Below, piece after piece: positions 1 to 29,231 of a stretch of 64,000 bases of DNA. Each line of letters begins with the position of its first letter. Position 1 is the stretch's first letter. The notes beneath the pieces are model-generated. The model saw nothing but the letters and a program-made list of their open reading frames with translations, was not told where the DNA came from and did no database searches. Origin of the DNA: Vicinamibacterales bacterium. Its GTDB lineage: Bacteria; Acidobacteriota; Vicinamibacteria; Vicinamibacterales; UBA2999. The stretch is from assembly GCA_035626435.1 (NCBI GenBank), contig DASPNQ010000209.1, positions 7,623 to 71,622 on the forward strand, written 5' to 3'. Both the position numbers and the translations under genes were made by a program.

Positions 1-819
1 TGTCGGAGCTGATCTCGACATTCTCGAAGAAGATGATCTTCGGCTACAGCTTCGTCGCCTTCTCGTCGCTGGCGATCGCGGTGTTCGGCTTCATCGTGTG
101 GGCGCATCACATGTTCGTCGCCGGCATTTCGACTTACGCCGCGATGGTGTTCTCGTTCCTCAGCTTCTCGGTGGCGATTCCGTCGGCGGTGAAGGTCTTC
201 AACTGGACGGCGACACTCTACAAGGGCGCGATCTCGTTCGAGACGCCGATGCTCTACGCCTACGGTTTCATGGGGCTGTTCCTGATTGGCGGCCTGACCG
301 GCCTGTTCCTGGCGACGCTGGGCATGGACATCCACCTGCACGACACCTACTTCGTGGTCGCGCACTTCCACTACATCATGGTCGGCGGCGCCATCATGGG
401 CTACATGGGCGGCCTCCACTACTGGTGGCCGAAGATGACCGGCCGCATGTACTCGGAGTTCTTCTCACGCATCAGTGCGATCCTCGTGTTCGTCGGTTTC
501 AACCTGACGTTCCTGCCGCAGTTCGTGGTCGGCTATCTTGGAATGCCGCGCCGGTATCACTCCTACCCGGATGAATTCCAGGTGCTGAACGTGATGTCGT
601 CGGCCGGCGCCAGCGTGCTGGGCCTCGGCTATGCGCTGCCGGTGATTTACCTGCTGTATTCGCTGAAGAACGGCGCCGTTGCCGGGCCGAACCCGTACGG
701 GGCCTCGACGCTGGAGTGGGCCACGCAGTCGCCGCCGCTGACGGAGAACTTCGTCGAGGTGCCCGAGGTGATCGGCGAGCCCTACGAGTACGAGCACGTC
801 GTCGCCAAGGAGAAGCATC

Positions 820-827
<8 letters not shown>
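1..827 (+). CDS. ctaD: cytochrome c oxidase subunit I, C-terminal part (5' end lies upstream of the window)
   Basis: Reading frame is open from nt 3. The translation contains [23 protein letters not shown] and GMPRRY, conserved motifs of heme-copper oxidase subunit I. Subunit III and IV genes follow directly. Confidence 0.93.
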
Positions 828-1596
<769 letters not shown>

Positions 1597-1965
1597 ATGT
1601 CGGCAGAACACGCACATTCACATGGGGCAGGGCACATTTCGCCGGTGTCGCTCTACGTCACGATATTCCTGGCCTTGATGGTGCTCACCGCGGTCACGGT
1701 TGGCGCTGCTTACGTCGACCTGGGCATCTTCAACTTTTCGGTGGCGATGCTGATTGCCAGCTTCAAGGCGTCGCTGGTGATTTGGTACTTCATGCACGTG
1801 AAGTATCAGAGCCACCTGACCAAGCTGACCGTCGCGACCGGTTTGTTCTTCCTGGCGATCCTGCTCGGGATGATGCTGATCGACTACACGTCGAAGGATT
1901 TGGTGCCGCGCCTGGTGCCGGCGCAGACCGATCCAATGGGTGAAATTCGGCGGCCTACGCACTAA
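1597..1965 (+). CDS. caa3-type cytochrome c oxidase subunit IV family protein
   Basis: ATG lies 1 nt after the ctaE stop. 122 aa with three hydrophobic helices and the SFKASLVIWYFMHVK motif typical of the small bacterial subunit IV. Operon position also fits. Confidence 0.7.
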   Translation: MSAEHAHSHGAGHISPVSLYVTIFLALMVLTAVTVGAAYVDLGIFNFSVAMLIASFKASLVIWYFMHVKYQSHLTKLTVATGLFFLAILLGMMLIDYTSKDLVPRLVPAQTDPMGEIRRPTH

Positions 1966-1972
1966 TAGTCGC

Positions 1973-2034
1973 CAGGGAGCTAGGGAGCTAGGGAGCGAGG
2001 GAGCTAGGGAGCGAGGGAGCGAGTAGCTAGTAGC
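1973..2034 (+). repeat. tandem octamer array A: (KAGGGAGC) x6 followed by degenerate GAGTAGC/TAGTAGC units
   Basis: Read directly: CAGGGAGC TAGGGAGC TAGGGAGC GAGGGAGC TAGGGAGC GAGGGAGC GAGTAGC TAGTAGC. It fills the gap between the convergent stops at 1965 and 2027. Confidence 0.95.
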
Positions 2035-2518
2035 TACCAACGCGCGCGAAGGCGTTGAACCCCTTGGACTCGCTGCGGTCGCTGAGGCCCTGGTCGACGC
2101 CGACATCCTCGAATTGAATGGCGTTTGCGCCAATCTCCGCGAGCGCATGCAGCAGCCAATGTCGGCGTTCATCCGGCACGCCGAGCACGGCGATTGCGTG
2201 CGTCGCTTTCGCAAACATGCGCGCGAGCACGCCGCGCATGTAATCCAAATCGGCAGCGCCCGCGAAGGACCGGCAGACGATCACGTCCCAGGGAACGGAA
2301 GGGTCGAGCGTCGAGGCCATGCCGACCTGAAATACCCCTTCCGGCATTGCGGCGATGGCCGTCGCGATTGCGCCGGCCTCTCCGTCGATCCCGCCGACGA
2401 TGTAGCCGTTTCGATGGAAAGGAAAGAGGAAGGCGCCGTCGCCGCAATCGACTTCGAAGATGCGCGTACCGGGTCCGACGTCCAGGACCTCGGCGACATG
2501 TTCCGCCAGCTCGATCAA
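2027..2518 (-). CDS. class I SAM-dependent methyltransferase-like protein
   Basis: 163-aa ORF with a glycine-rich motif-I-like stretch (VLDVGPGT...VDCGDGAF). TTG start lies 1 nt after the stop of the upstream gene (2520), suggesting an operon. Assignment is motif-level only. Confidence 0.45.
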   Translation of the reverse strand: MIELAEHVAEVLDVGPGTRIFEVDCGDGAFLFPFHRNGYIVGGIDGEAGAIATAIAAMPEGVFQVGMASTLDPSVPWDVIVCRSFAGAADLDYMRGVLARMFAKATHAIAVLGVPDERRHWLLHALAEIGANAIQFEDVGVDQGLSDRSESKGFNAFARVGSY

Positions 2519-2519
2519 C

Positions 2520-2957
2520 TTACTTGTCGAGACCGGAGATATCGATAGTGGCGGTGTCGACGGTCACCGACGCCACTTTGGTACCGGCCGGCACGCGGAA
2601 CGGAAAGTTGCACTTGTACTCGGGCACCGAACCCGCGTCGATGATCGACACCGAGGTCTGATAGGTCTTGCCCGACGCGTCCGTCAGAACCGGTTTCTTG
2701 ACAATGGTCTTGGCGTCGAATGCGGGTGTGACCTTGAAGGCCAGCGCCACGACCGCGAACTCGGTGCCCTCGAGGGCGTTGCCGCGGACGCTGTTTTGTC
2801 CCGGCGGGCAATCCACGAGCGCAACGTTCTTGGCGCGCTCTACGCCGATCGGCGTGATGTCGAGGCCTTTGTAGGAGACCGGCTTGGCCGGCTGCGCCGA
2901 CGTGAAGAGCGAAACGTGAAAGGTGAAAAGCAAGCCGGCTACTATTCCACTCTTCAC
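2520..2957 (-). CDS. exported hypothetical protein
   Basis: 145-aa ORF with a GTG start preceded by GGGAGCGGA. N-terminal hydrophobic signal-like segment (IVAGLLFTFHVSLFTSAQP). No recognisable catalytic motif. Confidence 0.55.
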   Translation of the reverse strand: MKSGIVAGLLFTFHVSLFTSAQPAKPVSYKGLDITPIGVERAKNVALVDCPPGQNSVRGNALEGTEFAVVALAFKVTPAFDAKTIVKKPVLTDASGKTYQTSVSIIDAGSVPEYKCNFPFRVPAGTKVASVTVDTATIDISGLDK

Positions 2958-2974
2958 GTTTCCGCTCCCTACGC

Positions 2975-3009
2975 CTTTAACTTTTAACTTTTAACTTTTA
3001 ACTTCCTAG
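2975..3009 (+). repeat. tandem heptamer array (TTTTAAC) x4.5
   Basis: CTTTAAC TTTTAAC TTTTAAC TTTTAAC TTCCTAG read directly. The last unit overlaps the stop codon of the 3006-3827 gene. The first unit lies 18 nt upstream of the GTG start at 2957. Confidence 0.9.
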
Positions 3010-3827
3010 AGCGGCGCATCCGGATTGGCAATCGTCCGCCACATGTGCGCGCTCGGGCTGTTGTCGTTGCCGAGCCCTTCCTTCGGCTGCTTGAAGTGGC
3101 GGCCGATGATGTCTTCGAACGGCTCGATCGACACCTTGGCGTTCGCGTCGAACGCGTAGAGATCGTTGACCGTGACCAGGCGCGGCTCCATGTACCACTT
3201 GTGGTTGCGGAGCATCTTGTAGGTCGCTTCGATGTGGGCTGGCGGTTTGTAGTCTTCGCCGAAAATCCGGTAGTACTGATCGGGATATTCGTAGCCCGCA
3301 TCGAGGTCCGGGTAGAACCGCAGCGTCTGGTGATAGCGGATCGCGAAGGTCGACTTCTCCGGAATGTACGGCTCGAACAGCTGTGCGCCCCACCAGCCGT
3401 GATCCGGCTTGATCAGGTTCAGCACGCAGTCATGCAGCAGGCACGCGAGCGTCACTTCCTCTGACATGCCGGTCTTGAGCGCGCGCGTCGCGCTTTGCAG
3501 CACGTGGTTGGCCGGCGCGAAGCGGAGGCGGAAGAAGTCCTGGAGCGTTGGATTCTTCGGCATCGGCTCGAGCTTCTTGACGTTGCCGCGCGTGTTGACG
3601 AACAGGCTGCCGACGCCGCGGCGATAGTTGCGCGTTTCGATTTGCGCTTCGATTTCGGCGACCGTTGGGAACTTCGGCGGTGCCTGTCCCTGGTTCGCGG
3701 CGACCTGCTCGTCGAGCTGCTCTTCCATCCAGTGCTCGAGGGCGTCGGCCTTGGCTTCCGAGTCCATCATCGCGACGGCCGCCGTGCCTCCGAGGCTGGC
3801 GATGAACGCTCTGCGATCTATTTCCAT
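3006..3827 (-). CDS. Tat-signal HD-domain protein (MIOX-like motif pattern)
   Basis: ATG at 3827 is preceded by GAGGTGGGA. N-terminus MEIDRRAFIASLGGTAAVAMM is a twin-arginine signal. Contains an LLHD (HD) motif, plus IRYHQTLRFYP and VNDLYAFD, which resemble the C-terminal motifs of myo-inositol-oxygenase-type HD diiron enzymes. Confidence 0.6.
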   Translation of the reverse strand: MEIDRRAFIASLGGTAAVAMMDSEAKADALEHWMEEQLDEQVAANQGQAPPKFPTVAEIEAQIETRNYRRGVGSLFVNTRGNVKKLEPMPKNPTLQDFFRLRFAPANHVLQSATRALKTGMSEEVTLACLLHDCVLNLIKPDHGWWGAQLFEPYIPEKSTFAIRYHQTLRFYPDLDAGYEYPDQYYRIFGEDYKPPAHIEATYKMLRNHKWYMEPRLVTVNDLYAFDANAKVSIEPFEDIIGRHFKQPKEGLGNDNSPSAHMWRTIANPDAPL

Positions 3828-3925
3828 GAGTCCCACCTCTACGGCCTACGGCCGCCAGGGGAAACACTACGCCGAGTCCGGCCCTCGTTCAACCGGATCT
3901 TTGTGCTGCGCTGGCGCGTCGCCTG

Positions 3926-4729
3926 CTACTTCACACCCTGACGATGCAGATCGTCGAGCCATCGTTGCGCGAAGGCGCGAGCGGCGTCGGTGGCGGGTTT
4001 TCCGGCCCGAAAAGTCATTTTCCATGCGGCCGGCTTGGCTTCGAGCGTGGGGTCGGCGAACACTTTCTTATCGCCCTTATCGACGAGCTTGGCGTTGAAA
4101 TCGATGTCTTTGGTCGTGTCGAGGAAGTGCCGGAGCCGCATCGCGACCAGCGCTCGCGAGTCAGCCGGATAGACTTTTTCCAGCTCCTGCATCGCCAGAT
4201 CGCGGCTGCGAACCTGCTGGGCGCGTTGTTCACGAAGCACCGCTTCGATTTCCTTGCGGCGCTCGCCTTTTTCCATCTCGTCAAGCTGCCGCCGCATGTC
4301 GGTCCATCCGGCTTCGAGCGTGGCGCGCTGTTCCGGGGTGATCTGATCGAACAGCTTGCGCATCTCGACCACCTGGTTTTCGAACCCGGTGCGCTGTTTC
4401 GCGAATACCTGATCGACGGTTTGCTCGTCCGGCAGCGGGTCGGGGCCGTTCGCTTCGCGATGGTCCGCGTATCGGCGCTTGAAGTCGTCGCTCTCCGCGA
4501 ACGTTCGCGCCATGGTCAGCGCGAAGTTGACGAGCGCGACCCGCGCCGCATCCGGCATGGCGATGAACGCAGCCGGCTTGCCGGCGATTGACACCGCGTC
4601 GGCGACGAAGGAGTCGAAGATTGCTTCCTTGGCGCGCCCTTCGCTAATCCCAAGCGTCGCCAGATGATCCTGCGCCGCGGCCGCGGCCGCGATTACGCAA
4701 ACAAGCGTAACGGTTACGTAAAGTCGCAT
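3926..4729 (-). CDS. exported hypothetical protein
   Basis: 267-aa ORF with a signal-like N-terminus (VTVTLVCVIAAAAAAQ). The rest is helical and charged, with no known motif. Confidence 0.55.
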   Translation of the reverse strand: MRLYVTVTLVCVIAAAAAAQDHLATLGISEGRAKEAIFDSFVADAVSIAGKPAAFIAMPDAARVALVNFALTMARTFAESDDFKRRYADHREANGPDPLPDEQTVDQVFAKQRTGFENQVVEMRKLFDQITPEQRATLEAGWTDMRRQLDEMEKGERRKEIEAVLREQRAQQVRSRDLAMQELEKVYPADSRALVAMRLRHFLDTTKDIDFNAKLVDKGDKKVFADPTLEAKPAAWKMTFRAGKPATDAARAFAQRWLDDLHRQGVK

Positions 4730-4746
4730 AGCAGGGAGTATAGCGT

Positions 4747-4834
4747 TAGGGAGCTAGGGAGCTAGGGAGCGAGGGAGCGAGGGAGCGAGGGAGCGAGGGA
4801 GCGCGAAAGCCGGGGAGCGCGGGAGCCGGGGAGC
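4747..4834 (+). repeat. tandem octamer array B: (KAGGGAGC) x7 plus 4 degenerate units
   Basis: TAGGGAGC x3, GAGGGAGC x4, then GCGAAAGC CGGGGAGC GCGGGAGC CGGGGAGC. Lies between the divergent starts at 4729 and 4951. Confidence 0.95.
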
Positions 4835-4950
4835 GCAAGTCTTGCGATCACGACATGGTTTCTACTGCGCAAGAATTGCGAACAGGTTCGGCGCAAATTG
4901 GTGATCTGCGAACAATTCCGCGTGGCTCGCAGCGTGCATCGACGTGGCGC

Positions 4951-5334
4951 ATGCCCATTAGGTCGTTTCAAGATTTGCTGGTGTGGCAGCGCTCGATGCA
5001 ACTCGCCCAAGACGCCTATCCGATGATCCGTCGGTTGCCTGCGGATGAACGGTTTGAATTGTGTGCGCAGATGCGGCGAGCGGTGGTCTCGACGCCCTCA
5101 AATATCGCCGAGGGCTTCGGCTACGGCTCCACTCGTCGCTACGTCCATCACCTGCGAATCGCACTCGGATCGAATGCCGAGTTTCTCACGCACCTGATGC
5201 CGGCCGAGCGATTACAACTCGTCTCCGCTGACGAGACCAAACCATTAATCGACCATGCGTCGCAAATTGGCCGGATGCTCAACGCGCTGATCCAGTCGTT
5301 GCAACGATATGAACGTGGCTCGCTAGCTCCCTAG
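4951..5334 (+). CDS. four-helix-bundle protein (23S rRNA intervening-sequence protein / Avd-like family)
   Basis: MPIRSFQDLLVWQRSMQLAQDAY...ELCAQMRRAVVSTPSNIAEGFG...HHLRIALGSNAEF matches the TIGR02436/PF05635 pattern (F.DL.VWQ, R...SI..NIAEG, A.GS..E). The tracked ORF starts at 4855, but the family-typical N-terminus is the ATG at 4951. Confidence 0.8.
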   Translation: MPIRSFQDLLVWQRSMQLAQDAYPMIRRLPADERFELCAQMRRAVVSTPSNIAEGFGYGSTRRYVHHLRIALGSNAEFLTHLMPAERLQLVSADETKPLIDHASQIGRMLNALIQSLQRYERGSLAP

Positions 5335-5407
5335 CTGCGCCCAGCTCCCGCGCTCCCTAGCTCCCTAGCTCCCTAGCTCCCTGGCTCCCTGGCTCCCTAG
5401 CTCCCTA
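5318..5407 (-). repeat. tandem octamer array C: 11 units, reverse complement of arrays A/B/D (reads GCTCCCTR on the + strand)
   Basis: GCTCGCTA GCTCCCTA GCTGCGCC, a 2-nt slip, then GCTCCCGC, GCTCCCTA x3, GCTCCCTG x2, GCTCCCTA x2. It starts inside the last codons of the 4951-5334 ORF and ends 5 nt before the helicase stop at 5412. Confidence 0.95.
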
Positions 5408-5411
5408 ATTC

Positions 5412-7082
5412 CTAATTCGCCGGCTTCGACTGAACGGTGACCTTCTGGCCGCGGATCTTGGTTGCTTTCAAGGCGACGATGATTTTTTGCGACACCTCCT
5501 CGGGCACCTCGACGAGCGAGTAGTCGTCGTGCACTTTGATCGCGCCGATCACGCTTGACGGCACCCGCGCTTCGCCGGCGATGGCGCCGACCAGATCGGC
5601 GGGGCGGACGTTGTGTTCCTTACCGACGCTGATTCGCAGCAGCGTCATCGGGCCCGCGTCGCGAGTCGCAGCCGGACGCCGTTCGCGCTGCGGTCCGCGG
5701 TCGTCATAGCGGTCGCGTGAGCGCGTGTCGGGTTCCGTTGCGACGTCGGCAATGGCGCGCTCAGACCCGTCGCTGGCGAGCGCGATCGCGGCCGCGGCGA
5801 CATCCATCAGATCGAACTCGTCGGCGAGCTCCTGCACCAGCTCGCGGGTCAGTTCAAGGCCGCCGGCGGTAATCCGCTCTCGCAGAGCGTCCTTGGTCGC
5901 TTCCATGCGGCGCTTGCGCAGGTCCGCCTCCGTCGGCAGCTTGCCGATCTCGATCTTCTGCTTGGTCAAGCGCTCGACGAATTGCAGAAACCGCTGCTCG
6001 CGTGGCGATACCAGCGTGATCGCGACGCCCTCGCGGCCAATGCGCCCGGTGCGGCCAATGCGATGGACGTAAACTTCAGGCGCCGTGGGTAGATCGAAAT
6101 TGACGACGTGGGAGACGTGCTCGATGTCCAAGCCGCGCGCGGCGACGTCGGTCGCGACGAGAATCTCGGATTGTTCGCTGCGGAACCCCTGCATGACGCG
6201 ATCGCGCTGTTTCTGCATCATGCCGCCATGCAGTGCCTGCGCGCCGTAGCCGTGGGCGTTGAGGGTGTCGGTGAGCTCGTCGACTTCGATGCGGGTGCGG
6301 CAGAAAACGATCGCCGACTTGGGGCTCTCGAAGTCGAGAATCCGGCTGAGCGCGTTGATCTTCTGGCCCCTGCCGACGATGTAGGCAACCTGGCGCACTT
6401 GCGGTAACTTGCCCGCGGCGCGTTTCTCCTGCGCGATCTGCACCTTCTTCGGACTCTTGAGATGCCGTCCGGCGATCGCCATGATCCGCGGCGCAAACGT
6501 CGCGGCAAACAGCGCTGTCTGGCGGGTCGCCGGCGTCTCGTTCACGATCGCGTCGATGTCTTCCGCGAAGCCCATGTCGAGCATCTCGTCCGCTTCATCG
6601 AGCACCAGCACCTTCACCTCGCCCAGCTGCAGTGTCCGCCGGCGCAGATGATCGAGCACGCGACCCGGCGTCCCGACGACGATGTCGGCGCCGCGGCGCA
6701 AGGCGCGGATCTGGTGATCCATCGGCGCGCCGCCGTACACCGGCACGACGACGAGGTTCGAGCCTTTGGCGTATTTATGGAGCGCCTCGGCCACCTGCAT
6801 CGCCAGCTCGCGCGTCGGCACTAACACCAGCGCGCGCGTGCGCCCGCGATCGGCCTTGCCGTCTTTGGACAGGGTATCGAGCAGCGGCAGTGCAAACGCG
6901 GCGGTCTTGCCCGTGCCCGTCGCGGCCTGGCCGAGCATGTCGGCGCCGGACAGCAAGGTGGGAATCGCTTCGCGTTGAATGGGAGTGGGTTCTTCGTAGC
7001 CCAGTGCGGCGACCGCAGCCACGAGGGCGTCGGTTAGACCGAGTGACGCAAATCCAGCCGACTCGGCCGAAGGATTCTTCAT
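5412..7082 (-). CDS. deaD: DEAD-box ATP-dependent RNA helicase with DbpA-type C-terminal RNA-binding domain
   Basis: 556 aa with a Q-motif region (TPIQREAIP), AATGTGKTAAF (Walker A), VLDEADEML (DEAD), ARGLDI and HRIGRTGR. The C-terminal ...LLRISVGKEHNVRPADLVGAI... resembles a DbpA/DeaD RNA-binding domain. Confidence 0.92.
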   Translation of the reverse strand: MKNPSAESAGFASLGLTDALVAAVAALGYEEPTPIQREAIPTLLSGADMLGQAATGTGKTAAFALPLLDTLSKDGKADRGRTRALVLVPTRELAMQVAEALHKYAKGSNLVVVPVYGGAPMDHQIRALRRGADIVVGTPGRVLDHLRRRTLQLGEVKVLVLDEADEMLDMGFAEDIDAIVNETPATRQTALFAATFAPRIMAIAGRHLKSPKKVQIAQEKRAAGKLPQVRQVAYIVGRGQKINALSRILDFESPKSAIVFCRTRIEVDELTDTLNAHGYGAQALHGGMMQKQRDRVMQGFRSEQSEILVATDVAARGLDIEHVSHVVNFDLPTAPEVYVHRIGRTGRIGREGVAITLVSPREQRFLQFVERLTKQKIEIGKLPTEADLRKRRMEATKDALRERITAGGLELTRELVQELADEFDLMDVAAAAIALASDGSERAIADVATEPDTRSRDRYDDRGPQRERRPAATRDAGPMTLLRISVGKEHNVRPADLVGAIAGEARVPSSVIGAIKVHDDYSLVEVPEEVSQKIIVALKATKIRGQKVTVQSKPAN

Positions 7083-7107: not shown

Positions 7108-7195
7108 CCGGGGAGTTTGGGGCTAGGGAGCTAGGGAGCAAGGGAGCTGGGGAGCGAGGGAGCTGGGGAGCGAGGGAGCGAGGGAGCTAGGGTGA
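7108..7195 (+). repeat. tandem octamer array D: (NRGGGAGC) about 9-11 units (clear core 7124-7195)
   Basis: TAGGGAGC TAGGGAGC AAGGGAGC TGGGGAGC GAGGGAGC TGGGGAGC GAGGGAGC GAGGGAGC TAGGGTGA, preceded by two degenerate units. It ends 2 nt before the permease stop (7197). The clear core starts 42 nt upstream of the helicase start (7082). Confidence 0.95.
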
Positions 7196-16367: not shown

Positions 16368-16503
16368 GCGGTTGAACGAACGGGACGGGCGCCGTGATGA
16401 AGCGATCTCGTAAACGATTACGGTATCCCCGACGGTATGAAGCGAGAGCATATACTTGGCTGGCACGGCCATTCTTACTTGTAGCGTTTACGGAGACACT
16501 TTG

Positions 16504-17310
16504 ATGACGAGACGATTGGCAATTCTTTCGGCGGCGTTCGTGCTGACCGCGACCGTTGCATCCGCACAGGCCACGACGACCGGGCAGAAGCCGTTCGAGC
16601 CGCAGGTTGGCCAGGCCGGCAAGGACGTGGTCTGGGTGCCGACCCCGCAGGCGGTAGTCGACAAGATGCTCGACATGGCGCAAGTCACCAGTAGCGACAC
16701 GGTGATCGATCTCGGATCGGGCGACGGCCGCACGGTGATCACCGCCGCCAAGCGCGGCGCGCGTGCCTATGGCATCGAGTACAACCCGGACATGGTGGAG
16801 CTGTCGAAGAAGAACGCGGCGGCGGCGGGCGTCACCGATCGGGCGACGTTCATCCAGGCCGACCTGTTCGAATTCGTGAAGGGCGATCAGTTCAAGAACG
16901 CGACCGTCATCACGATGTTCCTGCTGCCGTCGATCAACATGAAGCTGCGGCCCACCATTCTCGATCTCAAGCCGGGCACGCGCGTCGCCTCGAACACCTT
17001 CACGATGGAAGACTGGCAGGCCGATGAGACGGCGACGGTCACCGACGGCTGCTCGAGCAGCTGGTGCACGGCGCTGTTCTGGATCGTGCCGGCGAAGGTT
17101 GCCGGCACGTGGAACACGCCCAACGGCGCGTTGACGCTGACGCAGAACTTCCAGATGCTGAGCGGCACGCTTGGCAACCAGGCCGTTCAGGGCCGCCTGC
17201 GCGGGAACGAGATCACGCTGACCGCCGGCAATCAGAAGTGGTCGGGCGTCGTCGACGGCAGCACGATCAAGTTCTCCGCGCCGTCGGCGATGACCGCCAC
17301 CAAGAAATAG
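16504..17310 (+). CDS. signal-peptide-bearing class I SAM-dependent methyltransferase-like protein
   Basis: ATG 16504 is preceded by GGAGA. N-terminus MTRRLAILSAAFVLTATVASAQ is Sec-signal-like. Motif I is VIDLGSGDGR, followed by GIEYNPDMV and FIQADLF. Paralogous to the 33680-34207 gene. Confidence 0.7.
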   Translation: MTRRLAILSAAFVLTATVASAQATTTGQKPFEPQVGQAGKDVVWVPTPQAVVDKMLDMAQVTSSDTVIDLGSGDGRTVITAAKRGARAYGIEYNPDMVELSKKNAAAAGVTDRATFIQADLFEFVKGDQFKNATVITMFLLPSINMKLRPTILDLKPGTRVASNTFTMEDWQADETATVTDGCSSSWCTALFWIVPAKVAGTWNTPNGALTLTQNFQMLSGTLGNQAVQGRLRGNEITLTAGNQKWSGVVDGSTIKFSAPSAMTATKK

Positions 17311-17422
17311 GTGCCAAAGTGCCAAGGTGCCAAGCGGTGCGACGGTGCCGCCTGGCACCTAGGTGTTGGCACTGTGGCACCCGCACCCCTTTGGCACCGT
17401 GGCACTTTTGGCACGTTGGCAC
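17311..17422. repeat. inverted pair of octamer arrays: (GTGCCAAN) x3-5 facing (TTGGCAC/TGGCAC) x7
   Basis: GTGCCA at 17311, 17319 and 17327, then GGTGCG and GGTGCC. Centre GGTGCC-GCCT-GGCACC (17344-17359). TGGCAC at 17353, 17367, 17375, 17392, 17400, 17409 and 17417. Starts 1 nt after the stop at 17310. Confidence 0.9.
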
Positions 17423-17648
17423 TTAGAATCCTGCAGAAACCAGCCTAATTCGACTGATTAGAACAATCGTTTAAGACGCGCGCCGATTCAGGTCTTGGCA
17501 CCGTTGTCTACGATTGTCTCGAAAGGTCTTATCTTCTTGCCCCATCTATGCTTACGGGCGATTGGGTGTATATTTTCCACAGGTTCAAGTAGGACGCCGA
17601 GACAGCACTTCGGGGTCCTTGTTCTTCGTGCGTTTGGGGATGTTCGAA

Positions 17649-27475: not shown

Positions 27476-28138
27476 TTGCGAATTCTGGTGATTGAGGACG
27501 AAGTTCAACTCGCAGCGCAGCTTACCCGCACGCTGGGCGACGCCGGCTACGCGGTCGATCACGCTGCTGACGGCGAACGCGGGGAGTTTCTCGGCCGGAC
27601 CGAGGGCTATGACGCTGTGATCCTCGACCTGGGACTTCCGAAAATGGACGGACTCACTGTGTTGCGGCAATGGCGCGAAGCCGGTCTGGCGATGCCCGTG
27701 CTGATCCTGACCGCACGCGGCAGCTGGCACGAGAAGGTCCAGGGCATCGACGGCGGCGCCGACGATTATGTCGCCAAGCCGTTTCAAGTCGAAGAGGTAC
27801 TGGCGCGTTTACGCGCGCTGATACGACGATCGAGCGGCCAGGTCACGCCGGAGCTACGGTGTGGCCGAGTGGTGCTCGATCCGCGCGGCGCCCGCGTCTC
27901 GGTCGATGGCGTTCCGGTCAAGCTGACCAGCCACGAGTTCCGCGTCCTTTCGTACCTGATGCACCATCGCGGCCGCATCGTCTCGCAGTCGGAGCTCACC
28001 GAGCATATCTATTCGCAGGGCTTCGATCGCGATTCGAACACCGTCGAAGTCTTCATTGCGCGGCTGCGCCGCAAGCTGGGTGGAACGTTCATCGAAACGG
28101 TGCGCGGCATGGGTTATCGGATCGAGGCCGGCAACTGA
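27476..28138 (+). CDS. OmpR-family response regulator
   Basis: TTG start. MRILVIEDE...DAVILDLGLPKMDG...LTAR receiver domain plus a C-terminal winged-helix (LTSHEFRVLSYLM...VEVFIARLRRKL...TVRGMGYR). Confidence 0.92.
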   Translation: MRILVIEDEVQLAAQLTRTLGDAGYAVDHAADGERGEFLGRTEGYDAVILDLGLPKMDGLTVLRQWREAGLAMPVLILTARGSWHEKVQGIDGGADDYVAKPFQVEEVLARLRALIRRSSGQVTPELRCGRVVLDPRGARVSVDGVPVKLTSHEFRVLSYLMHHRGRIVSQSELTEHIYSQGFDRDSNTVEVFIARLRRKLGGTFIETVRGMGYRIEAGN

Positions 28139-29133
28139 TGGTGTCGCTGCGCGCGCGGGTGTTCCTGGGCGCCCTGCTGTGGAGTCTTGGACTGTTTCTC
28201 GGCAGCGGCATGATCCTCACGCACTACATGCTGTTCGTGCCGCAGGCCCCAGGGATTTTTCACGGTTTCTTCATCCACTACATGTACGCGATCTTCATCG
28301 TCACCATCGCCAGCATGGTGATCGGCCTGCGCCAGGTGCGCAAGGGGCTTGCGTCATTTGATGAATTACGCGCGCGATTGCCGGGCGTTCGCGAGGGCAA
28401 GCAATCGCGTCTCGACGGCGAATATCCGTCGGAGGTGCAGCCGTTGGTGAACGACCTCAACGCGTTGCTCGCCGATCGTGAGCAGCGCATTACGAAGGCG
28501 CAACTGAAAGCTGGCGATCTTGCGCACGGCTTGAAGACACCGCTGACGCTGCTGAATCAGCAGGCCGAGCGGGCGCGGGAGGGTGGGCAGCGGGAGCTGG
28601 CCGCCGCGATCACGCAGCAGATCGAGCGGATGCGCCGCCAGATCGAGTACCACCTCGCGCATGCGCGCGCGTCGGCGGCGGGCGGCACACCTGCCGCTCG
28701 CTGCCATGTCCTGACGTCGGCCGACGCGTTGGCTCGGACCATGCTGGCGTTGCACGCCGAGCGGTCGCTCAGCCTCGATTGCAACGTGTCGCACGAGCAT
28801 TTCGTCAGAGCGCAACGCGAAGACTTCGAGGAGATGCTCGGCAATCTCGTGGACAACGCCTGCAAGTGGGCTCGTTCGCGCGTTACCGTACAGTCGACGC
28901 TGGAGGGCGGCAGCATCACGACGACGGTGGATGACGACGGGCCGGGGCTGGCAGATGCGTTGCGGGAGACGGTATTACAGCGCGGCGTCCGGGCCGACGA
29001 AGCCGCGCCCGGTTCCGGGCTCGGCCTCGCCATCGTCGCCGATCTGGTCGAGTTGTACGGCGGCACCATCACGCTGACATCGTCACCGCTTGGCGGACTC
29101 CGCGCCATCCTGCGGTTGCCATCGGCATCGTAA
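28138..29133 (+). CDS. sensor histidine kinase (partner of the preceding regulator)
   Basis: The ATG overlaps the regulator stop (TGATG). Two N-terminal TM helices, H-box DLAHGLKTPLTLL, N-box VDNACKWA, G-boxes DDDGPGL and GSGLGLAIV. The upstream part of the tracked ORF (from 27670) is an out-of-gene extension. Confidence 0.88.
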   Translation: MVSLRARVFLGALLWSLGLFLGSGMILTHYMLFVPQAPGIFHGFFIHYMYAIFIVTIASMVIGLRQVRKGLASFDELRARLPGVREGKQSRLDGEYPSEVQPLVNDLNALLADREQRITKAQLKAGDLAHGLKTPLTLLNQQAERAREGGQRELAAAITQQIERMRRQIEYHLAHARASAAGGTPAARCHVLTSADALARTMLALHAERSLSLDCNVSHEHFVRAQREDFEEMLGNLVDNACKWARSRVTVQSTLEGGSITTTVDDDGPGLADALRETVLQRGVRADEAAPGSGLGLAIVADLVELYGGTITLTSSPLGGLRAILRLPSAS

Positions 29134-29143
29134 GCAGCTAACG

Positions 29144-29231
29144 CTGCCTGACTGCCTGACTGCTTGACTGCCTGACTGCCTGACTGCCTGTCTGCCTGTC
29201 TGCCTGTCTGCCTGTCTGCCTGACTGCCTGT
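29144..29231 (+). repeat. tandem octamer array (CTGCCTGW) x11
   Basis: CTGCCTGA x2, CTGCTTGA, CTGCCTGA x2, CTGCCTGT x4, CTGCCTGA, CTGCCTGT. Starts 11 nt after the kinase stop (29133) and ends 2 nt before the stop of the convergent gene (29233). Confidence 0.95.

Follow-up and report, generated by a model that had tools for sequence, protein, structure and literature searches.

The S23p, or "23S rRNA intervening-sequence protein", family is large and found in almost every bacterial phylum, and its function has been unassigned since the early 1990s; the tandem heptamer arrays of bacteria have likewise long been unexplained. Here we describe a 661-nt cassette at 4747-5407 of a 64,000-nt stretch of a Vicinamibacterales genome (contig DASPNQ010000209.1; hereafter the window, to which positions refer unless another locus is named), in which a gene of this four-helix-bundle family lies between two inverted arrays of an octamer. 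We are confident that this cassette is a member of a widespread class.

The closest described system is the intervening sequence (IVS) of 23S rRNA. That of Coxiella burnetii is 428 nt long, sits in helix 45 and encodes S23p behind a 28-bp stem, the 5' arm of which holds tandem GACAGAT units (two or three copies by strain, plus one degenerate) just before the ATG; RNase III cuts this stem where the first repeat begins, in vitro and by rapid amplification of cDNA ends (PMC4990558). With the IVSs of Coxiella and Leptospira that carry an open reading frame (ORF), our cassette shares a PF05635/S23p-family ORF in a loop tightly enclosed by an inverted-repeat stem, and with Coxiella in particular the tandem short units in the 5' arm right before the ATG, whose copy number varies between strains. 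Unlike the rRNA IVSs, it lies between protein-coding genes and not in helix 45, 25 or 9 of an rRNA gene. It further differs from the Coxiella IVS in its unit (8 nt, 11 copies), in an arm of ~90 nt rather than 28 bp and in a gene antisense to its surroundings; RNase III cleavage has been shown there and is a prediction for the window cassette. A sequence-only reading of this DNA had proposed an IVS architecture outside rRNA, and this is supported: Rfam and tRNA scans of the whole window gave no matches at gathering score, so no rRNA was found in it, and the Coxiella stem with its RNase III-cut tandem heptamers provides the parallel.

Arrays of short units have been described without reference to this gene. 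Hundreds of heptamer-type arrays, many of them inverted pairs, were surveyed in Xanthomonas, Nostoc and Geobacter (PMC4692102, PMC2700814). The repeats are GGGAATC in Xanthomonas and GGGGAYT in Nostoc, and GGGAATC arrays form G-quadruplexes (G4) in vitro (PMC4692102); Geobacter metallireducens has paired hepta- and octanucleotide sites (PMC2700814) and Beggiatoa has TAACTGA arrays (PMC4679880). The published readings are G4 formers, or binding sites for a regulator or for S1, with the four-helix-bundle gene unmentioned (PMC4692102, PMC2700814, PMC4679880). In Xanthomonas campestris, one GGGAATC x4 array of the 186 in the genome overlaps the annotated start of XCC0516 (PMC4692102 supplement), itself a PF05635 member. 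Our arrays resemble these and the cyanobacterial short tandemly repeated repetitive (STRR) sequences, which are intergenic tandem units of 7-8 nt, typically in about four copies, often just past a stop codon, sometimes in inverted pairs and of variable copy number. They differ in that the window pair encloses a gene and in having a unit of 8 nt, not 7. As with STRR sequences, the window holds a tandem unit, intergenic, in several arrays. Searches of the open full-text literature found no description of PF05635 genes in association with flanking arrays, the Coxiella IVS heptamers being a partial exception.

Other gene-and-repeat systems offer more distant comparisons. A REPtron is a REP-associated tyrosine transposase (RAYT) gene between inverted repetitive extragenic palindromic (REP) sequences, with copies of REP or of REP doublets forming hairpins (REPINs) dispersed through the genome. 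There too, a single small gene lies between inverted repeat copies, and the repeat also occurs solo or hairpin-paired in other intergenic regions. The gene enclosed here, however, encodes a PF05635 four-helix bundle and not the HUH tyrosine (Y1) transposase RAYT, the repeat is a tandem 7-8-nt array rather than a palindromic REP, and no mobilisation activity is known for the cassette. The Avd protein of diversity-generating retroelements (DGRs) has a homologous four-helix-bundle fold, but the window protein matches its models only weakly and below both cut-offs (NF033474, 30.1 bits vs 80; PF22296, 29.2 bits vs 40), and of the genes called in the 10 kb to each side of the cassette none is a reverse transcriptase (RVT family). 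At hmw1A of Haemophilus influenzae, a tandem-repeat tract and an RNase III-targeted element of the 5' untranslated region (UTR) set expression (PMC12721329). The likeness is the pairing of a simple-sequence repeat tract with an RNase III-targeted RNA element; that system, however, is a single direct-repeat tract in a promoter/UTR, which neither has an inverted counterpart nor encloses a gene.

A discrete insertion between helicase and 267-aa genes

The 5' arm reads TAGGGAGC three times, GAGGGAGC four times and then GCGAAAGC, CGGGGAGC, GCGGGAGC and CGGGGAGC. The 3' arm reads GCTCGCTA, GCTCCCTA, the 10-nt unit GCTGCGCCCA, GCTCCCGC, three GCTCCCTA, two GCTCCCTG and two GCTCCCTA, the 10-nt unit being the 2-nt slip at 5342-5343. 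Tandem Repeats Finder (TRF) finds period 8 and 11.0 copies in each arm, and the eleven octamers, reverse-complement array and slip first reported for this DNA prove exact to the base. The arms pair best between 4746-4814 and 5340-5408, with 88% complementarity across 69 nt. The 3' arm starts inside the four-helix-bundle ORF and ends 4 nt short of the helicase stop codon. Coordinates are collected in Table 1.

Table 1. Coordinates of the cassette, its host genes and the solo arrays of its octamer.
Feature	Position	Strand	Description
5' arm	4747-4834	+	11 tandem octamers (TAGGGAGC/GAGGGAGC), final four degenerate; G-rich on the gene's sense strand
Leader	4835-4950	+	~115 nt from 5' arm to ATG; long for the class (median ~41 nt)
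Four-helix-bundle gene	4951-5334	+	127 aa; PF05635, TIGR02436
3' arm	5318-5407	+	11 reverse-complement octamers (GCTCCCTA/GCTCCCTG), single 2-nt register slip
267-aa gene	3926-4729	-	Function unknown; host gene beside the 5' arm
DeaD-type DEAD-box RNA helicase gene	5412-7082	-	Host gene beside the 3' arm
Solo array	1974-2036	+	AGGGAGCT x ~6, the cassette's octamer unit; past the coxIV stop, over the stop of a convergent 163-aa ORF
Solo array	7111-7192	+	Cassette's octamer unit, ~10 copies; in the gap that separates the helicase start from the stop of the MacB-type permease

The sole credible ORF between the arrays runs from ATG 4951 to TAG 5332-5334; its final codons and stop are made of array units, and the TAG falls within the second unit of the 3' arm. 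The family assigned to this ORF from the letters is upheld by matches to PF05635 (E 2.4e-30, 105.3 bits against a cut-off of 33.8, profile positions 1-106 of 106) and TIGR02436 (106.8 bits, cut-off 24). In an alignment of 42 sequences that includes the window protein, Q40, S47, I52, A53, E54, G73, S74 and E77 are invariant, the NIAEG motif is present and the N-terminus is in register with homologs. No PADLOC defence-system model gives a family for the protein at E <= 0.01. A profile built from it matches PDB entry 2GSC, the pentameric XCC0516, at E 2e-38. The solved PF05635 members, 2GSC and 2RLD, have five chains per entry, and XCC0516 has been described as a homopentamer (PMC4990558). The window protein itself is predicted to be pentameric by the match to 2GSC only.

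As RNA, 4735-5420 folds at -356 kcal/mol, compared with -276 ± 6 for shuffles (z = -12.6). The outer helix of this fold is the two arrays paired, with the ~480-nt loop enclosed, and the stem is far more stable than the shuffled controls that the sequence-only reading had named as a test.

The cassette is a discrete indel because locus L088, with matching gene order (helicase, 267-aa, 273-aa, 149-aa, 165-aa, coxIV, coxIII), has neither gene nor arrays. The L088 helicase is 82% identical to that of the window, closer than the helicase of locus L002, and only 118 nt separate it from the 267-aa gene; no four-helix-bundle gene and no period-7/8 array occurs in the 9.7 kb of this locus. The breakpoints are the outer ends of both arrays, since homology resumes ~15 nt upstream of the 267-aa gene ATG and at the helicase stop codon. 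The synteny expected of an insertion at this point is therefore borne out. No direct repeat stands at the indel boundaries relative to this empty site, and the cassette differs from a miniature inverted-repeat transposable element (MITE) or insertion sequence (IS) in lacking a target-site duplication and in having the four-helix-bundle gene as its only ORF, with no transposase. The gene is also absent beside the helicase orthologs on the contigs of P0122 (gene list only), P0129 (L089) and P0139 (L090). In L090, a remnant of a truncated 267-aa gene lies downstream of the helicase ortholog (5830-6005) with ~58 C-terminal codons readable; this neighbourhood is repeatedly rearranged.

The relative that does have the gene at this locus (L002-L005) also has arrays, of a different unit, in keeping with the earlier claim that gene and arrays form one cassette. 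The closest homolog with usable DNA, P0003 (L002), is 60% identical, occupies the same locus and is convergent with the orthologous helicase (75% identical). Its upstream array is GGGATCA x4.3 and its downstream array CCCTGAT x5.4; the two units are mutual reverse complements and unrelated to TAGGGAGC. The comparison of P0003 with the window is covariation at the level of whole arrays. In L006, two paralogs lie between GAGGTTA and AACCTCT arrays, and in L007 the gene lies between GTTAGAT and CTAAC arrays. P0003 and P0006, despite 79% identity, are found in different intergenic gaps within a single conserved neighbourhood.

The long leader has sequence blocks common to window 4835-4950, L002 3823-3949, L006 4975-5100 and 7969-8084, and L007; those conserved in the Vicinamibacterales clade are CGAGGATCGCAGAAyCTGAG, TTTCG..GGC and CCTGCA. 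It may house the gene's own promoter or operator. A promoter scan of 4500-5600 found no sigma-70-like site, and a terminator scan of the same interval gave a single terminator-like match, inside the helicase ORF. The consensus fold of the leader over five relatives is weak (-5 kcal/mol), with nothing convincing, and an Rfam scan of the leader gave no match.

Recurrence of the layout among PF05635 genes

From the genomes of about 80 GTDB species we fetched 80 loci that encode relatives, of which 75 genes were testable. Almost all bacterial phyla are represented; the loci come from Acidobacteriota, Armatimonadota, Bacteroidota, Clostridia, Planctomycetota, Chloroflexota, Gemmatimonadota and Verrucomicrobiota, as well as Alpha-, Beta- and Gammaproteobacteria, lineages of the candidate phyla radiation (CPR) and one archaeal metagenome-assembled genome (MAG). 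A gene was scored positive when its local inverted-repeat score reached at least 30 and each arm had a period of 7 or 8. Inverted period-7/8 arms were found at 49 of the 75 genes. Among other ORFs of the same loci 4/307 were positive, and all four turned out to be PF05635 genes, for a true rate of 0/303 (Fisher p 8e-43). On viral contigs, 26 of 40 PF05635 copies were positive. The question of whether other family members are bracketed, which the sequence-only reading had left to a genome scan, is thus answered in genomes of other species.

TRF places a tandem array on each side of most genes, with a period that is nearly always 7 and a downstream unit that is the reverse complement of the upstream one. 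The unit is different at every surveyed locus, and the arms match their own partner: an upstream flank matches its own downstream flank (score at least 30) in 56/75 loci compared with 11 of 600 cross-locus pairings. Typically the arm is 32 nt and the loop 426 nt long (both medians), with ~41 nt between the 5' arm and the first matched codon and ~6 nt between the stop and the 3' arm. Array copy number is variable, with a mode of 4-5 units, a median of 4.3 and a range of 3 to about 19. The 5' arms are strongly G-rich (G 751 vs C 254), and 57 distinct heptamers (L008-L130, L252-L255), optimally rotated, have a weak core nnnYAGK of 4.3 bits, compared with 3.66 ± 0.12 when shuffled. With 11 octamers and a 115-nt leader, the window falls in the long tail of this geometry, and its copy is atypical of the class in three respects, namely the octamer unit, the ~90-nt arms and the antisense placement.

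Gene and arrays are inherited together. Among pairs with 70-90% identical proteins, 77% have the same unit to within one mismatch, a share that falls to 3% below 45% identity, which indicates that the arms are under selection. Pairs that keep the unit include MAGs labelled different phyla, such as L015 and L043 with 79% identical proteins and near-identical units, and a pair of a bacterium and a viral contig; gene and arrays have apparently also been transferred together.

The layout is present in named complete records, including Calothrix brevissima NIES-22 plasmid1 (GGGTGTA/TACACCC), Nostoc punctiforme pNPUN01 and Anabaena sp. 90 pANA02. The cassette of Nostoc edaphicum pNe_5 (TAGGGAG/TCCCTAC) has the window unit minus one base; it lies between ribonucleotide reductase genes and is likewise antisense to its neighbours. 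Of 67 loci, 60 have an upstream neighbour that runs in the direction of the cassette gene, against a background of 62% (p 4e-7), and 50 of 64 have such a downstream neighbour; the intergenic gaps around the cassettes are too short for promoters or terminators. With 90% of cassettes co-oriented with the upstream gene, frequent inversion is unlikely, which counts against the suggestion that this is an invertible segment.

Signature motifs of 23S and 16S rRNA occur at most once per locus, as isolated chance matches, so none of the 80 cassettes is in rRNA. Size, arm length, repeats and ORF of the Coxiella IVS match the typical survey cassette, the 428 nt of Coxiella lying close to the median loop and the window cassette being larger than both; the ORF-bearing rRNA IVS would therefore seem to represent one of the settings in which a far more general cassette is inserted.

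Several single loci merit mention. In plasmids gamma and alpha of Nostoc sp. PCC 7120 (L250, L251), a CTTCTGC/CCTCTGC 3' array is present and the 5' partner absent. Each has an annotated transposase gene upstream, in L250 of the ISL3 family and ending 77 nt before the gene, in L251 on the opposite strand at a distance of ~550 nt; insertion of an IS may have removed the 5' arm. In Anabaena sp. 90 pANA02 (L253, 1501-1869), an AGGTGAC / CTGTCAC cassette separates cas6 from cas4 in a CRISPR-Cas operon of type I-D. The '23S rRNA IVP' (intervening-sequence protein) has been listed as associated with CRISPR adaptation modules (Altae-Tran et al. 2023, PMC10910872), and operon insertions of this kind may explain that association. 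On a viral contig (L104, 3001-3357), a PF05635 ORF lies in another frame within a 1324-aa ORF (12-3986); either a cassette has entered a large gene here or the long ORF is spurious. The array-less viral loci inspected as candidate DGR-linked Avd controls, L096 and L104, have no obvious reverse transcriptase beside the gene.

Neighbourhood and arrays without the gene

Gene order in the window is coxI-coxIII-coxIV (+), four minus-strand ORFs, the cassette (+), helicase (-), MacB-type permease (-), PadR (-) and trkA/trkH (+). The fourth of the minus-strand ORFs, adjoining the cassette, is the 267-aa gene, whose ATG is only 17 nt from the 5' arm. NCBI assigns the helicase protein to Vicinamibacterales (Acidobacteriota). 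The four-helix-bundle gene is antisense to both neighbours, and its upstream neighbour is divergent.

Two further arrays of the cassette's octamer, at 1974 and 7111, were absent from the sequence-only reading. The first is 94% complementary to 5344-5393; the second forms with 5340-5426 an inverted pair around the helicase gene, 87 nt at 83% complementarity. All four arrays lie within 5.3 kb and are intergenic or touch only the stop or last few codons of an ORF, and none is present in the syntenic relative L088. Both solo arrays are G-rich on the plus strand, and only the C-rich 3' arm is complementary to three partners. On a minus-strand transcript from the permease to the 163-aa ORF, three C-rich arrays are possible partners for the lone G-rich one, with alternative loops of ~0.5, 1.7 or 3.3 kb. 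In a contig 99.8% identical to the window (ERZ27257312:k141_1110097), the array at 7111 is 56 nt, or 7 units, longer (L001 12175-12298), and both cassette arms are identical; the length difference is either a true copy-number polymorphism or an assembly collapse.

The window holds other arrays as well. A gene-less inverted octamer pair, GGTGCCAA / TTGGCACC, lies at 17309-17424 immediately past the stop of ORF 16456-17310 and folds into a ~115-nt hairpin (-72.6 kcal/mol, z = -6.1); its GGTGCCAG unit also adjoins the cassette 5' arm in L002 (3787-3822). A solo array of CTGCCTGA/CTGCCTGT x11 occupies 29144-29230, 10 nt past the stop of ORF 27670-29133, with no complementary partner seen in the window. 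A perfect TTTAACT x4 heptamer array lies at 2976-3004, between minus-strand ORFs 2520-2957 and 3006-3836.

Beyond the window, same-unit arrays were found near 9 of 33 cassettes against a background of 3%, and (AGGGAGCN)x3 or a longer run of this unit occurs in more than 119 metagenome contigs. The 80 AGGGAGCN metagenome loci (L131-L210) include six short gene-less hairpins, G-rich then C-rich, with loops of 49-137 nt. The orientation of their arrays relative to neighbours is confounded, as the arrays keep spurious ORFs open, 47 of the 105 scoring as inside an ORF.

Possible roles: RNA processing, protein partnership or DNA mobility

On our reading, the cassette is the same element as the ORF-bearing IVS of 23S rRNA helix 45. 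We propose, with a confidence a little better than even, that it acts as that IVS does, residing in a host transcription unit and having its stem processed by RNase III. Cassettes would usually be promoterless and transcribed by read-through in host operons. A transcript over both arms would form a long, near-perfect duplex, typically of ~32 bp and up to ~90 bp in the window. Duplexes of ~32 bp are substrates of RNase III. Cleavage of the arm duplex as in the Coxiella IVS would free the ORF-bearing loop RNA and sever the host transcript, and slippage would alter arm length while the repeats keep the arms pairable in any register. In the window, the 267-aa gene must be expressed by transcription that crosses or starts in the cassette, since only 17 nt of its own upstream sequence remain, and it is in the minus-strand transcript from the helicase to the 267-aa gene that the stem is of most consequence, since the four-helix-bundle gene is antisense to its neighbours. 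There the duplex would part the two cistrons, and the four-helix-bundle gene would probably be expressed from its own, unusually long leader. That RNase III processes the stem at this particular locus is, by analogy with Coxiella, about as likely as not.

Several points weigh against this proposal. Cleavage by RNase III in this organism is something we infer purely by analogy, and a plain inverted repeat would suit the enzyme equally, which leaves tandem 7-mers in nearly every phylum unexplained, as are the G-rich 5' arm and the weak nnnYAGK core. With a divergent upstream neighbour and a 115-nt leader, the gene's own mRNA may omit the 5' arm. Wobble pairing does not pick out a strand: in the sense orientation G:U-type mismatches number 48 and A:C-type 63 (p = 0.18), and with no excess of G:U between the arms, nothing marks the sense RNA, over DNA or antisense RNA, as the selected structure. 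Arrays of the cassette's octamer also occur without the gene, in the window (1974, 7111) and in metagenomes. None of the 105 AGGGAGCN arrays in the 80 metagenome loci is beside a PF05635 ORF, though these loci are short and show nothing of the rest of each genome. Of the four refuting conditions set out with the sequence-only reading, the three open to analysis leave its core claim standing, with the caveat that arrays of the cassette's octamer are far commoner without the gene than with it.

Could the arrays act at the level of DNA, as terminal repeats or portable homology of a mobile or recombining cassette, with the RNA stem a by-product? Movement between array-bearing sites would occur by recombination, template switching or an enzyme in trans. 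We regard this as possible but less than probable. It would account for presence/absence polymorphism with breakpoints at the outer array ends, for P0003 and P0006 in different slots of one neighbourhood, for the near-identical units of L015 and L043, for copies on viral contigs and plasmids, and for the absent wobble asymmetry. The gene-less inverted pairs, at 17309-17424 and, with the cassette's own unit, in L067, look like deletion derivatives. However, there is no target-site duplication, no transposase or recombinase in the cassette and no known catalytic motif in the PF05635 protein; arm sequence is unconserved between cassettes, so no common recognition sequence exists; and the strong co-orientation with upstream genes points to a dependence on host transcription that a purely DNA-level element would not need.

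The asymmetry between gene and repeat, in which the gene is nearly always with arrays and most arrays are without the gene, is like that of RAYT genes and REP sequences. It is tempting to speculate on a protein-array partnership, REP/RAYT-like or TRAP-like, in which the pentamer binds tandem units, about one 7-nt unit per subunit, both in its own flanks (autoregulation) and in dispersed same-unit arrays, as a self-contained regulatory or selfish module. This would be compatible with RNase III processing, although we think it doubtful. It draws on the five-chain entries 2GSC and 2RLD and the homopentamer XCC0516 (PMC4990558) beside arrays that peak at 4-5 units, on a period of 7 that dominates in all phyla although the protein is the only conserved component, and on the excess of same-unit arrays near cassettes, seen in the window at 1974 and 7111. 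The GGGAATC x4 array over the annotated XCC0516 start (PMC4692102 supplement), the co-divergence of unit and protein and the weak core common to units fit as well. Against it, binding is a prediction; co-divergence is equally expected from co-inheritance of a selected stem; a copy number of 3 to about 19 misfits a strict ruler; and the metagenome octamer loci, short as they are, have no PF05635 gene. A strict "one subunit, one heptamer" ruler is weakened by 60% identical proteins that use 7-nt or 8-nt units (the window vs L002 and L006). Slightly less likely still, the PF05635 pentamer would be the cognate binder, and possibly the propagator, of the arrays, with each gene accompanied by inverted arrays of its own 7-8-nt word and that word colonising other intergenic sites.

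Two further explanations fare worse. The G-rich arm could adopt a G4 fold at the DNA or RNA level, with an i-motif in the C-rich arm, and these structures would modulate transcription or translation. (TAGGGAGC)n fits G3N5 with GGG every 8 nt, the Xanthomonas arrays do form G4 in vitro (PMC4692102) and 5' arms are generally G-rich; but many units without GGG or even GG (AGTATTG, GACAAGA, AGTGACA) keep the architecture, and the complementary partner arm is left unexplained, so that we consider this improbable. It is hardly credible that the octamer arrays are simply a repeat spread through the intergenic regions of the genome, with the gene between two of them by chance, or, in a variant, that the inverted pair makes an invertible switch. 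Four arrays of the octamer in 5.3 kb, of which two lie apart from the gene, and the commonness of arrays without it speak for coincidence; the survey contradicts it, with 49/75 against 0/303, arms that match their own partner and an ortholog that keeps the layout with a different unit, and co-orientation in 60/67 loci argues against frequent inversion.

The layout links two puzzles, the function of the S23p family and the heptamer arrays, with the rRNA IVS apparently only a special case. Its pieces were known separately, as Coxiella heptamers, Xanthomonas and Nostoc G4 repeats and Geobacter "regulator sites"; no earlier account of their association turned up in openly accessible full text. There are practical consequences, too. 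Array length differs between near-identical assemblies, and arrays may break or collapse in assembly; operon insertions, as between cas6 and cas4, can yield spurious functional associations in guilt-by-association screens. Should the pentamer partnership be true, STRR sequences, Xanthomonas GGGAATC arrays and Geobacter paired sites would make up the dispersed part of a system of gene and repeat comparable to REP/RAYT, and the 23S rRNA IVS would be just one of its insertion sites.

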